From NCBI GenBank assembly GCA_965217775.1, contig CBDCJH010000002.1, positions 736,001 to 800,000 on the forward strand: DNA of 64,000 nt, written 5' to 3'. Positions 52,019-56,234 of this stretch are shown here, in pieces (the first letter of the stretch is position 1; every line of letters starts with the position of its first letter). Below the pieces are notes generated by a model, which saw nothing but the letters and a program-made list of their open reading frames with translations, ran no database searches and was not told the DNA's origin. Position numbers and translations under genes: made by a program. The DNA is from Acidobacteriota bacterium. GTDB lineage: Bacteria > Acidobacteriota > UBA6911 > RPQK01 > JAJDTT01.

Positions 52019-52174
52019 TACGGAGGCGTCGAGGAGTCCGGATCGTCGTCGTTACTGTTCGCCCGGTCGGCTAGGCTGCTACCGATCCAGGTCCTGTTTC
52101 ATATTGGTGTGAGGATGGTTCTCGCAATGGGCTCGTCACACTAGTATCCGATGGGATACAGGGGGGAGATAATC

Positions 52175-52480
52175 ATGGCAAAGATAAGTACCCGTCCATG
52201 GGATGCGGCCGAACATCTTGAGACCGACGAGGATATGGCTGCCTACCTGGAGGCGGCGCTCGAAGACGGTGACCCTGCGCTGATATTTGCTGTTTTGGGG
52301 GACATCGCACGCGCCAAGGGTATGACTGGAATCGCACGGAATGCGGGTCTGGGACGGGAGAGTCTTTACAAGGCGTTGTCTCCCGGCGGCAATCCGAGAT
52401 TCGCCACCGTGCTCAAAGTCGTACGGACGCTGGGACTCCAGCTTCACGCGGCGCCGGCTCGAGGTTCAACCAATCAGTAA
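52175..52480 (+). CDS. Addiction-module antidote protein (HI1420/HigA-like HTH), orphan
   Basis: WDAAEHL...AYLEAALE...IARAKGMT...RESLYKALSPGGNPRFAT; no toxin ORF upstream. Confidence 0.88.
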   Translation: MAKISTRPWDAAEHLETDEDMAAYLEAALEDGDPALIFAVLGDIARAKGMTGIARNAGLGRESLYKALSPGGNPRFATVLKVVRTLGLQLHAAPARGSTNQ

Positions 52481-52971: not shown

Positions 52972-53098
52972 GGGTTTACGCCTCCTGTTCAATGTCTCCG
53001 ATCATGCATTTTCGGATCAAGGCGCGTCAAAACGCCGTTCCCGCTGCCGGGTACGGCAACGCCGTTGGACAAGCCAAAGGCCGGCAAATTCGACTCGG

Positions 53099-53506
53099 CT
53101 ATGGAACGACCTCGAACCCCATCTGCTGGAAGTGATGGTCCAACGTCAAGACCCTGCGAATTCGCAGTTCCCGCATGACAACGAAGCTGCAGCAGTCGGT
53201 GAAGGAGAAGTCCTTGTCACGGTAGCGGAAGAAAAGCGATCGTGCGCGTTCTCTTCGCGCTTCACCGACCGACTCCATGCGAAGTCGGGTCGACCCTTCG
53301 ATTTGCCGCCACCAGGCTTCAGCGGCGTCGAGACCGAGGCGAAACCGGATCGTGGTCAGGGTCTCGTCGACCACGTAGTCGGTCGTCACCAGGATGCCGC
53401 CCTCCGAAAGCCATCGATCCCGAGTCTGCCGTACGAACGGGCCCGAGGTATCGGCGCTGTCGGCGGCGGAAACCCATGCGGCCGTATCCACGTAGATGGG
53501 CTTCAT
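53099..53506 (-). CDS. vapC: PIN-domain toxin
   Basis: IYVDTAAW, TTDYVVDET, FSFTDC, TLDHHF. Confidence 0.9.
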   Translation of the reverse strand: MKPIYVDTAAWVSAADSADTSGPFVRQTRDRWLSEGGILVTTDYVVDETLTTIRFRLGLDAAEAWWRQIEGSTRLRMESVGEARRERARSLFFRYRDKDFSFTDCCSFVVMRELRIRRVLTLDHHFQQMGFEVVP

Positions 53507-53748
53507 CGATAAAGCAGCTCGTCGTGCCTCGCGGCGGCGTCCCCCGAGTCGGAAGAGCCGACGGGTGCGGCCCGGAACAGCGAATCCGATTCCAAGGGCA
53601 CGCTTTCGACAGAGGGAGCGCCTACCGGGACGATGTCGAAGGCCGGGCGGCTCCGGTACAGGACGGTGAACTTTTCACCATGTCTCACCTTCTCGACGAT
53701 GTCCTTCAATCTCTCTCGGAGCTGTTTGGCGTTGAGAATCTCATGCAT
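53503..53748 (-). CDS. Phd/YefM-family antitoxin
   Basis: NAKQLRERLKDIVEKVRHGEKFTVLYRSRP...HDELLYR; ATGA overlap. Confidence 0.85.
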   Translation of the reverse strand: MHEILNAKQLRERLKDIVEKVRHGEKFTVLYRSRPAFDIVPVGAPSVESVPLESDSLFRAAPVGSSDSGDAAARHDELLYR

Positions 53749-53789
53749 CGGAGTGCTCTCGTCACAAAGTTCAACTTAAGTTAATCTTT

Positions 53790-53900
53790 GGGGCTTATAT
53801 ACCTAAGTGCCCTTGGCATACAGTTCTGGCACCACGCTTTCCCCAACGAGATACGTTCCGGTGCCCAGGGCAAGAACCCCAGCCCTGAGAATGTTCAGGG
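53790..53900 (-). ncRNA. Putative TnpB omegaRNA/reRNA scaffold overlapping the tnpB 3' end (5' boundary uncertain)
   Basis: Stems agggc...gccct and ctgggcacc...aacgt...agcgt-ggtgccag-aa directly after the NAALNI codons, where TnpB scaffolds normally lie. Confidence 0.55.
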
Positions 53901-54978
53901 CGGCATTGTGGTCCCTGTCCATTCCAAGTCCGCAGGCCCTGCACCGGAAGGTTTCGCTCCGTCCTGGATCGTGGCGGGCGCCGCACCGGTGGCAGTCCTG
54001 CGAGGTATATGCGGGATTCACTTCTACGAACTCCCGACCGGCCCATTCTGCCTTGTACTGGAGTTGATTCCGCAGAAGCCCCCATGATTGCGTCAGTATT
54101 TCTCGATTCAGCCCCTTCTTCTTCGAGCCCTTCGTTACCATCCCTTGGATGTTCAGCTTCTCCACAGCGATCAGACCGTGCTCACGAATGATCCTGCTGG
54201 AGAGACGATGGCAGGCATTACGGTTTCGGACCGATTCCCGGTGACGGAGCCGAGATAGCTGTACGATCCGCTTCCGTCTGGTCTTGGAAATCTTCTTGCA
54301 CCTGGAGACCTTTCTCTGCTGCTTTCGGATCTCCCCCCAGTCCCGTCTCTTCCGTTCGATCCTCTCACCCGTGGACAGCACCGCTCGCTTGCGGACGCCC
54401 AGGTCGATCCCCACCGAAGACTCGCATTTCGGTAGCGGCGGCTTCTCCACCTCGTAGGTCAGGTCCACATACACCCGGTTCGGCTTGCGGACAATCCGCA
54501 ACGCTTTCAACGGGCATCCGTCCGGCAACGGCCGGGACGGAAATACCCGGATCGTCGGAAAGCCCTTGGGGCGGATGGCGTATCCGCGCGCCCGCTTCTT
54601 CACCACGGTCGCCTTGGGGTCGACGATGTCGATGGTCTCCATCCTCGCCAGGGGCCGGAACCGAGGATACCCCGGCTTCTCCCCCGCCTTGCAGCGACGG
54701 AAGAACGCCTGGAAGGCCCGGTCCAACCGCATCAACATCCCACGCTCCGCCTTGACCGCCACCGACCCGAGCCCCTCCGGATCGTCCTTCCTCTGGGAGG
54801 TCAACCCCTTCATCTGATCGTACAGGGTCACGCCGCGTTGCTCGGATTCCCAGGCCGTCCTGCGTTCCTCCAGTGCAGCGTTGTACAGCCGATTCAGGAT
54901 GGACCTCACCCCGTCCAACCGCCGGATTCCACCCTTGGACAGCTTGGCTCTGCACTGGATAGTTGCGTGGCCTTTCAT
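53803..54978 (-). CDS. tnpB: RNA-guided endonuclease TnpB
   Basis: LYNAALEER, KPGYPRFR, RuvC-I GIDLG, RuvC-II AVEKL, YTSQDCHRC...CRAC zinc finger, RuvC-III DRDHNAALNI. Confidence 0.95.
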   Translation of the reverse strand: MKGHATIQCRAKLSKGGIRRLDGVRSILNRLYNAALEERRTAWESEQRGVTLYDQMKGLTSQRKDDPEGLGSVAVKAERGMLMRLDRAFQAFFRRCKAGEKPGYPRFRPLARMETIDIVDPKATVVKKRARGYAIRPKGFPTIRVFPSRPLPDGCPLKALRIVRKPNRVYVDLTYEVEKPPLPKCESSVGIDLGVRKRAVLSTGERIERKRRDWGEIRKQQRKVSRCKKISKTRRKRIVQLSRLRHRESVRNRNACHRLSSRIIREHGLIAVEKLNIQGMVTKGSKKKGLNREILTQSWGLLRNQLQYKAEWAGREFVEVNPAYTSQDCHRCGARHDPGRSETFRCRACGLGMDRDHNAALNILRAGVLALGTGTYLVGESVVPELYAKGT

Positions 54979-55112
54979 GGTCGGAATTGTAAACCATCAG
55001 CCTGAATTCTCGGCACTTACGTATATAATCTCTTAATCTTTCCTGAGAATTGAGGCAACTGGGCCGCGCCGCATGGCGCTTGCATGAACCGTCCAACCAG
55101 TGAGGATTTGTT

Positions 55113-55939
55113 ATGAGGAAGTGGGGCACGCCGGACGATCCCCGCCGGGCGCGGGTCGAGGAAATGCTTGAATCGTCCCGGGTCGTCGAAATTTTCAAGG
55201 GGGTTCACGACTTCAACATCGACGAACCGGCGGAGGACTTCCCGATCTTGAGCATGGCCTTCGGGTCATGGACCTCGACCGTTCGATTCCAGGTCCCGCA
55301 GTTCGGCCGTTGGCTGGCCGCCACCGGTTCACAACGTGCCTACGCTCACCACCGCAGCATCATGCAGAATTACACGTGGCAGCGCCGGCAACGTCAGCCT
55401 GGGCACCCGGGCAATGGCTGTTCAAGATGCCATTTCAACTCATGGAGTTGGAGACCTGGGCGAGACCTATCCCGACGCCCTTTTCATCCGGACGCACCGT
55501 AGCCCCAGCCAATTCATGGGTTCCTGGAACAGCTTCGTGGAAAAGGCGCGTTCGCTCTCCGTCCATCCACAGCCCCGAGAAAGCCTCGGCGCCGAACTGC
55601 TGGACTTCATGAGCCGCATGATGGATCGAGCCGTGCATTTCGGGGAAACCCATCCCGAACTGGAGCACCGCATGGATGGACGTGAACTACATCGATCTGG
55701 TGGAAGACCCGCTGACCGTGGTGCACGGTATCTATGAGCGGTTCAATTGGCCGCTCAAACGGTCGGTCCTGAACACCATGGACGACTGGCTGTTCCAGCA
55801 GGCGGCGCGCCGCCATAAGGAGCCGAAACATCGCTACGATCTGGCGGACTACGGCCTGACACCCGAGGACGTCAACACTGCGTTTGGGGGTTATCGAGAT
55901 TTTCTGACCCGCGCCGGAATTCGCGAATCCGGTTCGTGA
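55113..55939 (+). pseudogene. Sulfotransferase-family relic, N-terminally truncated and frameshifted
   Basis: Fragments in different frames: EPAED, WLFKMPF, YPDALFIRTHRSP, HRYDLADYGLT. Confidence 0.75.
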
Positions 55940-55993
55940 TCCGGCTCGGTTGGCAAGTCAGCGCGCCGCTTGCGGTGAGCCGGGACTTCTCAA

Positions 55994-56234
55994 CCCGCAT
56001 TTCTCACCAGGCCGCTATGCTTATGCTGAAAAAGAATTCATTTTTCAGCATTTACCCGGCTATTGCCAAGGTCTCTCAGGGACAGACTGCGCGCTCGCGC
56101 GCCCTCGCTGGTCTTTTCGCCCTCAGCGCGCACATGCTCCCTCAAACGTAGCCACCACTACGCTTTCGGTCGCGAGCACGCGCTGAGGGCGAAAATCCTG
56201 CGCGATCATCGCGCTCCCTTCTGAGAAATGCGGG
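55994..56234. mobile_element. About 241-bp MITE, family B
   Basis: Perfect TIRs (a)cccgcatttctca / tgagaaatgcggg(t); flanks tcaa/tcat; long internal hairpins; no credible ORF. Confidence 0.7.

Follow-up and report, generated by a model that had tools for sequence, protein, structure and literature searches.

A 1,244-bp element at positions 53790-55033 of a 64,000-nucleotide stretch of DNA from an Acidobacteriota bacterium (contig CBDCJH010000002.1; the whole stretch is called the window below) is probably a mobile insertion cassette (MIC). It bears the ends of the IS1595 family of insertion sequences (IS) and no transposase, its sole cargo is the RNA-guided nuclease TnpB together with a predicted guide-RNA (omega RNA) module, and it would be mobilised in trans and retained at its sites through a target-adjacent motif. 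The identity of the cassette and its mobilisation in trans are put forward with high confidence, while the motif and the retention step are only slightly favoured. More tentative still, and rated a little below even, is the wider proposal that a TnpB lineage found across phyla (Acidobacteriota, Binatia, Chloroflexota, and probably Alphaproteobacteria) travels as a transposase-less rider on IS1595 ends, that the inverted repeat doubles as the last stem and a pseudoknot strand of the omega RNA, and that the nuclease decides which insertions survive. Cas12 descends from TnpB, which is itself a compact genome editor; to our knowledge, what TnpB does in nature has been established only for elements of the IS200/IS605 and IS607 types, which excise scarlessly.

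The cassette, its copies and its autonomous partner

The unit has inverted ends and an 8-bp duplication, and its sole gene is an intact tnpB on the minus strand (Table 1). In the window copy 18 of 22 bases match as an inverted repeat (53790-53811 against 55012-55033), and a repeat scan gave no inverted repeat in the region longer than the core of this one, 17 nt at 94%. The direct repeat TAATCTTT stands immediately outside both ends. The start codon of tnpB lies 55 bp inward of the left end, and its stop codon (53803-53805) falls within the right repeat. The left tip of the window copy (55030-55033) reads AGAG, where ten of the other 11 copies of its family (family A) read GGGG and one reads GGGA; with its tip changed, the window copy may no longer be a good substrate for the transposase.

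The repeat core has 35 matches in the genome at up to two mismatches, compared with one for a reversed control, and these matches pair into elements, giving 12 family-A cassettes, nine of them exactly 1,244 bp long. The duplications of the 12 copies agree at 8 of 8 positions in ten and at 7 of 8 in one, and one copy has unrelated flanks; every one of the eleven matching duplications has a different sequence. The left flank of the window is present in seven of the eight other genomes of the genus, one relative being 99% identical to the window there. Six of the eight carry an uninterrupted AACTTAAGT-TAATCTTT-CCTGAG, or close variants of it, in which the 8-mer stands once and the element is missing; another matches the distal part of the flank alone, and the last has no match. 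These empty sites with a single TAATCTTT establish that the boundaries of the cassette and its duplication are exact and that the insertion in the window is recent. The cassette transposes as a DDE element, with inverted repeats, 8-bp duplications that differ from site to site, and a precise empty site. One copy (G000:C1:22575-23818) lies on the small second contig of the assembly, 144 kb in length, which may be a plasmid or another separate replicon.

IS607 elements use a serine recombinase, lack inverted repeats and make no duplication. Elements of IS200/IS605 also lack both, carry subterminal hairpins and insert 3' of a fixed tetra- or pentanucleotide, according to sections of a 2026 review (PMC13565253). 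That the window holds an ordinary TnpB element of IS200/IS605 (IS1341-type) or IS607, with repeats present by coincidence, has a negligible probability. The NCBIfam models IS200_TnpB and IS607_TnpB do match the protein, below their cut-offs, and three weak Y1_Tnp-like matches occur elsewhere in the genome, none of them adjoining a tnpB copy. Membership in either group is nonetheless refuted by the 12 copies with the same inverted ends and variable 8-bp duplications and by the single repeat copy of the empty site. No Y1 or serine recombinase gene was found inside or adjoining any cassette copy, and 40 of 54 related insertions, described below, have duplications matching at 7 or 8 of 8 positions.

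A transposase with matching ends is encoded elsewhere in the same genome. Five elements of 1,760-1,762 bp have terminal repeats matching at 24 of 24 positions, each within its own 8/8 duplication, and the 1,762-bp form encodes, at L049:816-1820, a 334-aa protein that matches Pfam DDE_Tnp_IS1595 at 132 bits (E = 1.8e-38) and NCBIfam transpos_IS1595 at 177 bits (cut-off 75). The consensus ends of the cassette agree with the repeat of this IS at 23 of 25 positions on the left and 19 of 25 on the right. The two marks of the family, shared terminal repeats and an 8-bp duplication, were found in cassettes and IS alike (the full duplication in 10 of 12 cassettes and 5 of 5 IS copies). Family-A cassettes and the 1,762-bp IS occur together in the genome of the window and in a second genome of the genus (G006), which holds eight copies of the IS at 98% identity. 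When the two IS1595 transposases of the genome were compared by tblastn with 79 related tnpB loci, taken with 2.5 kb on each side, there was no match, so TnpB stands always alone between the repeats in this clade. As tnpB is the only open reading frame (ORF) of the cassette, which has no transposase of its own, the element is a MIC of the IS1595 family and not an IS. Matching ends and co-occurrence together suggest that the IS1595 transposase moves the cassette in trans.

Most of this had been anticipated by a first-pass annotation made from the letters of the window alone. Its 391-aa TnpB with intact D/E/D residues in a 1,244-bp unit was borne out by sequence, profiles and alignment with ISDra2 TnpB, as were the inverted-repeat ends with a perfect 8-bp direct repeat, the interval of about 55 bp before the start, the stop inside the repeat and the lack of a transposase. 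Its proposal of TnpB captured by an IS1595-type element and mobilised in trans gained support from the matching ends and the IS1595 transposase of the same genome, and the further tnpB copies with other duplications, the transposase gene sharing the repeats and the empty allele in relatives, all of which it had suggested looking for, were found. The alternative that it allowed, a 9-bp duplication including the adjacent G, is ruled out, since the corresponding position of the right junction is taken by the C that belongs to the repeat.

Some observations concern the partner itself. The 1,762-bp IS (G000:C2:445385-447146 and four sister copies) carries a 110-aa passenger ORF (L049:314-646, minus strand) downstream of its transposase. 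This ORF weakly resembles restriction-endonuclease folds, at 31.9 bits for NA-iREase1 and 21.7 bits for Mrr_cat; it belongs to a 90%-identity cluster of 119 members, for which the cluster look-up gave no name. The same look-up gave no name for TnpB, and the two transposase sequences have no entry in that collection. In the inner repeat, TTGACTAG is common to the cassettes of subfamily B and the IS1595 locus L084 of genome G004, and TTGACA is common to subfamilies C and E and the IS1595 locus L079 of G004. These are hints that cassettes and IS partners diversify together, which is an impression at this stage. An automatic repeat-pair search for the partner IS of other subfamilies yielded pairs in 4 of 17 IS1595 loci.

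TnpB and its predicted guide-RNA module

The 391-aa product matches Pfam OrfB_IS605 (65 bits), Cas12f1-like_TNB (91 bits) and NCBIfam guided_TnpB (215 bits, cut-off 100). Its best solved natural relative is the TnpB of ISDra2 (PDB 8bf8, E = 4e-31); in an alignment with it, D192, E273 and D356 fall in the DED columns and two CxxC pairs, C329/C332 and C346/C349, in the zinc-finger columns. The RuvC triad and the C-terminal zinc ribbon (TNB) of a TnpB are both present. The protein has 18 matches in its own genome, ten of them full-length, open and 94-100% identical. Among nine full copies the median ratio of nonsynonymous to synonymous divergence (dN/dS) is 0.30, and the catalytic residues are invariant across the cassette subfamilies; judged by codon changes, TnpB is maintained intact under purifying selection. 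Synonymous divergence in the last 61 codons of the nine copies is lower than overall (0.021 vs 0.050).

The last 280 nt of ten cassettes from seven subfamilies were aligned, and the alignment folds into conserved helices, placed in the window as given in Table 1. In the fixed structure 98.5% of cells are paired, compared with 28-48% in controls with slid partners, a comparison that flatters the pairing somewhat because the sequences are related and the structure was drawn from the same alignment. Eleven pairs change on both sides, and none of 500 shuffles reaches these values. A single-sequence fold of the 3' 171 nt is only weakly better than shuffles (z = -1.98) and disagrees with the alignment fold, so that covariation was relied on instead. 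A scan of 53000-56000 against Rfam gave zero matches at E up to 1, and a promoter and terminator scan, which is uninformative on expression, gave neither a promoter for the tnpB strand nor any terminator.

The terminal repeat itself appears to be part of this module. The last 42 nt of the right end form a hairpin in 14 of 15 family representatives, in which the 3' arm is the inner repeat and the 5' arm a complementary stretch absent from the left end; the left end, with the same repeat, folds worse than the right by a mean of 7.3 kcal/mol (14 of 15 representatives favour the right). The tip of the repeat, formed by the final 5-7 bases of the element, is complementary in 15 of 16 representatives to the first bases of a loop 68-103 nt upstream (about 90 nt in the window cassette), which belongs to a conserved GC-stemmed hairpin. 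The pairing sets covary as GGGGUU:AGCCCC, GGGGC:GCCCC, GGGAAU(U):(A)AUUCCC and GGGACU:AGUCCC, one subfamily retaining GGGG:CCCC alone, and on the alignment this helix is 95% paired, with two pairs changed on both sides. Covariation thus points to a scaffold that overlaps the 3' end of the gene and is closed by a pseudoknot, as in TnpB systems. In the ISDra2 omega RNA the corresponding pseudoknot pairs positions -2 to -6, which directly precede the guide, with -102 to -106 (sections of PMC10097598). With the repeat tip in the same position, the scaffold would run to the final base of the element, and the guide would start at the duplicated target; the predicted guide is the duplicated 8 bp followed by the right flank. 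The alternative that the guide is the repeat itself, with a scaffold ending before it, is ruled out, the repeat tip being the pseudoknot strand.

Contigs of four metatranscriptome libraries from two studies cover the element at 90-100% identity, and four such contigs cross the right end at 53787/53789 into flanks unlike that of the window, which fits read-through into the flank at other copies. Contig depth was left unused for inferring a small RNA, as it cannot rank the parts of a gene.

The same evidence bears on whether TnpB is a decaying passenger with no role in the life cycle of the cassette. Several copies are broken (L012/L017 split, L013 with a stop, L014-L016 fragments), and the left tip of the window copy is mutated, as such decay would have it. 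Against this stand the ten full-length open copies of the genome with their dN/dS, the invariance of the catalytic residues, and an RNA structure and pseudoknot retained by compensatory change across phyla, which together make a passive passenger very improbable. A functional TnpB with its predicted RNA is preferred here.

Table 1. Features of the cassette and its junctions, in window coordinates
Feature	Positions	Strand	Evidence or remark
Target-site duplication TAATCTTT, right-end copy	53782..53789	.	Single in the empty site of six relatives; would be the first 8 nt of the predicted guide
Non-autonomous cassette, 1,244 bp	53790..55033	-	Limits set by empty sites and 12 genome copies
Right-end inverted repeat, inward GGGGCTTATATACCTAAGTGCCCTT, contains the tnpB stop	53790..53814	-	19/25 vs repeat of the autonomous IS
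Predicted pseudoknot 3' strand AGCCCC, last six bases of the element (repeat tip)	53790..53795	-	Pairs with 53875-53880; compensatory variants across families and phyla
Right-end hairpin, inner repeat with a complementary arm unique to the right end	53796..53822	-	Fold of the window copy
tnpB, 391 aa, RuvC D192/E273/D356 and zinc finger intact	53803..54978	-	Profile matches, structure-based alignment, dN/dS
Conserved structured RNA module (predicted) over the last tnpB codons	53828..53887	-	Covariation
Loop of first hairpin, GGGGTT, predicted pseudoknot 5' strand	53875-53880	-	Covariation
Left-end inverted repeat, here AGAGATTATATACGTAAGTGCCGAG; family consensus begins GGGG	55009..55033	-	Consensus 23/25 vs repeat of the autonomous IS
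Target-site duplication, left-end copy	55034..55041	.	Sequence
Flank outside the left duplication, TCAGG (minus strand), last base G = 55042	55042..55046	-	Proposed position of the target-adjacent motif; G in 51/54 clade insertions

The surroundings of the cassette are rich in genes of toxin-antitoxin type. On its downstream side, 41 bp away, a gene pair at 53099-53748 (minus strand) encodes an antitoxin resembling Phd/YefM, at a sub-threshold 20 bits, and a protein with a PIN domain (38 bits), with the cassette upstream of both; because tnpB is directed at this pair, read-through from the right end would enter the antitoxin/PIN operon. A 109-aa ORF at 52151-52480 (plus strand) scores 110 bits against dnstrm_HI1420, the 'probable addiction module antidote' family.

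The clade and its insertion sites

The genus holds at least seven cassette subfamilies, whose proteins are 75-86% identical and all of which have 8-bp duplications. Their tips are of the GGGG/GGGA type, followed by (A/C)TTATA-like bases; the inner repeats differ, and a few copies have one or two tip bases changed. In a wider search, made with one genome per species, relatives at 43-54% identity were found in Binatia, Bryobacterales, Caldilineaceae, Dehalococcoidia and SAR202; their repeats are of the GGGAATTATATAC type and their duplications 8 bp long. Other loci that are incomplete, one of them on an Alphaproteobacteria contig, have right ends of this type too. One Caldilineaceae genome (G041, locus L133) has 66 repeat matches, equal to about 30 TnpB cassettes. 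Fifteen relatives at 27-33% identity lack ends of this kind. Down to 43% identity, homologues terminate in repeats of the IS1595 type and have 8-bp duplications, and none has Y1 or IS607 ends, as the first-pass annotation would have it; the phylogeny that it suggested agrees. One branch (SH-aLRT, an approximate likelihood-ratio support value, of 99) of a quickly built maximum-likelihood tree with 34 rows parts 16 rows with repeats and two with unreadable ends, one of these cut by a contig end, from 16 rows without repeats; the tree being unrooted, the split gives one side of a branch and not a dated origin.

Two observations belong to the Caldilineaceae genome. Five loci (L190-L194; G041:C1:1488120-1488900, 1688855-1689635, 2632300-2632745, 3260075-3260370 and 3273010-3274220) are internal-deletion derivatives of 222-1,135 bp, which keep the left end and the last 80-380 nt, the guide-RNA region, and may be stand-alone carriers of guide RNA; in the three whose duplications are intact, the left -1 base is also G. 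At L142, L145, L147, L143 and L144 duplications are swapped among copies, the right 8-mer of L147 being the left 8-mer of L142, which points to rearrangement by recombination between copies.

The flanks of the cassettes carry a one-sided signature. In all, 54 different insertion sites were oriented by tnpB (13 from this genome, 14 from relatives in the genus and 27 from other phyla), leaving out one locus with an unconvincing repeat pair and the loci without a readable pair. Position -1, just outside the duplication, is G at the left end of 51 of the 54 sites (A in three, never C or T), compared with 17 of 54 at the right end read as its reverse complement (Fisher p = 4e-12). The first duplicated base, +1, is A in 41 of 54 on the left and 18 of 54 on the right (p = 2e-5), and position -5 is A in 28 and 13 of 54, respectively (p = 0.005). 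Among the 40 sites whose duplications match at 7 or 8 of 8 positions, G is found on one side only in 27, and in all 27 this is the left end; 12 have G on both sides and one on neither. The three exceptions to the left G comprise two broken duplications and one disrupted tnpB.

If the scaffold ends at the end of the element, the target-adjacent motif of the unoccupied site falls at this left -1 position, and the one-sided G would be the 3' base of the motif. Under the mechanism proposed here, an IS1595 transposase would move the cassette in trans, and transcription through the right end would supply a guide made of the duplicated 8 bp and the right flank. TnpB would recognise the unoccupied site by a motif that consists of the last bases of the left flank, with G as its final base. 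At the occupied right junction the motif position is taken by the C of the repeat tip, and this junction would thereby escape cutting. Empty or vacated sites would be cut and repaired from a filled copy, so that insertions next to a motif persist, while insertions elsewhere or in the opposite orientation would be lost; such retention of motif-flanked insertions would explain the one-sided G. Each transposition would automatically reprogram the guide to the new duplication and flank.

Several considerations weigh against this mechanism, and the first concerns the transposase, for which a target preference of its own is possible. The one-sided G, with the A at +1, could be an asymmetric preference of the IS1595 transposase, TnpB being a functional cargo that does not shape the sites. 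Other IS1595 relatives (L091, L074, L099 and L075) have G outside the duplication at 7 of 7 ends seen, and identical duplications (ATAAAATA, ATTGGTAA and CTATTTTA) recur at different, unrelated loci, so target choice is non-random. The TnpB-less partner IS of family A, however, has no such bias, its ends carrying G in 5 of 13 cases on one side and in 3 of 12 on the other (8 of 25), a control that consists of one IS family in 13 copies. The Caldilineaceae cassettes show the same G on the tnpB-upstream side alone, yet their repeats are identical at 20 of 20 positions, so the repeats by themselves cannot set the orientation of insertion. The bias also extends to 12 or more repeat subfamilies from several phyla, in which different transposases would be in use, whereas TnpB and its RNA are the conserved part. 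A preference of the transposase is therefore rated unlikely as the source of the signature.

The other considerations on that side concern the RNA, the protein and the partner. The omega RNA, its 3' end and cleavage are predictions, and the contigs from RNA libraries reveal neither strand nor ends, with carry-over of DNA possible. Known TnpB motifs are 4-5 nt long, and one near-invariant base is a weak motif. Among the residues by which ISDra2 TnpB contacts its motif, only Y52 (here Y53) is clearly retained; the alignment is shifted in that region, for which reason transfer of the motif from ISDra2 was dropped as evidence. The Caldilineaceae genome with about 30 cassettes has no IS1595 transposase above the Pfam cut-off, its best match scoring 24.7 bits; the supplier there is either missing or escapes recognition. 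Cut-and-paste DDE elements have been argued to gain little from restorative homing (sections of PMC13565253).

A different use of the same geometry is also conceivable, in which TnpB and its RNA act at their own left junction, where every DDE insertion sets the motif base and the 8-bp start of the guide beside the left repeat, and through this partial match regulate transcription of tnpB or access of the transposase. This geometry follows from the duplication, the one-sided G fits it as well as it fits homing, and nuclease-dead relatives of TnpB, known as TldR, act as RNA-guided repressors. A pure binder would not need the RuvC triad, which is intact and conserved here, and a match of 8 bp is short for stable binding. 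Action at the left junction is hence given a small probability, and retention by cutting of the unoccupied site is preferred.

Related systems and significance

TnpB on DDE transposons is a known kind. Altae-Tran et al. (2023, PNAS; PMC10691335) distinguish, in sections of their main text, six DDE-associated TnpB branches (DDE-1 to DDE-6), all with inverted terminal repeats, together with solo TnpBs that lie between the same ends and are presumed to be moved in trans. The DDE families named are IS630 in that main text and ISL2, IS630 and IS1031 in the review PMC13565253, as far as the sections consulted go; in these, IS1595 is unnamed, and supplements may name families. The claim of the first-pass annotation that the pairing of TnpB with such a transposon was undescribed consequently holds in part: DDE-TnpB and solo copies moved in trans were already in print, and the specific link to IS1595 is absent from those main-text sections. 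A full-text literature search likewise returned no description of a TnpB-IS1595 pairing, most of its matches being judged by title and the start of the abstract. The DDE-TnpBs of Altae-Tran et al. resemble the present system, in the sections concerned, by a TnpB within an inverted-repeat transposon and a tnpB 3' end close to the transposon end; they differ in that here the transposase stands beside tnpB in 0 of 79 loci. Because the transposase is never adjacent, a survey of gene neighbourhoods would miss the pairing and call this clade 'solo'. Neither the repeat-tip pseudoknot nor the one-sided flank base was found in those sections of PMC10691335 and PMC13565253.

The cassette also has affinities with known IS1595 forms and with ISDra2. 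With the passenger forms and MICs of IS1595 it shares GGGG/GGGA repeat starts, AT-rich 8-bp duplications, a cognate IS1595 transposase and a transposase-less cassette with a passenger; the difference is that the passenger here is an RNA-guided nuclease with a predicted guide-RNA scaffold built from the repeat. IS1595 forms with passenger genes, the 'transporter IS', were reportedly treated by Siguier, Gagnevin and Chandler in 2009. ISDra2 (IS200/IS605; PDB 8bf8, 8exa and 8h1j) has in common with it the RuvC DED, the zinc finger, a scaffold over the 3' end of the gene, and a pseudoknot between the bases that precede the guide and a stretch some 100 nt upstream, as set out in sections of PMC10097598. 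Unlike ISDra2, the cassette has no Y1 transposase or subterminal hairpin ends and has inverted repeats and a duplication; its motif cannot be the whole TTGAT, and K76, F77 and Q80 are not aligned to identical residues.

A further parallel is offered by Fanzor, which in eukaryotic DDE transposons is also an RNA-guided nuclease on duplication-making elements, where the duplication bears on motif and guide (sections of PMC13565253). Fanzor1 lacks the 3' pseudoknot and its scaffold takes in the 3' duplication, according to the same sections, whereas the predicted pseudoknot of the prokaryotic cassette ends at its last base. As far as the literature was searched, then, DDE-TnpB as a kind is already known, and the pairing with IS1595, the strictly in-trans lifestyle, the repeat as scaffold and the one-sided flank base are not in print.

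Sections of PMC13565253 leave open whether TnpB benefits DDE transposons and for what reason prokaryotes seldom show the pairing. The present family is a testable case for such a benefit, as transposase and cassette are paired in one genome, and the insertion signature, with 27 of 27 informative sites in the predicted orientation, predicts the motif. The scaffold of the guide RNA is predicted to be made of the transposase's own binding site. If the proposal is true, RNA-guided retention would not be tied to scarless excision, and the family would provide the first sequence-level evidence for RNA-guided retention of a prokaryotic cut-and-paste DDE transposon.

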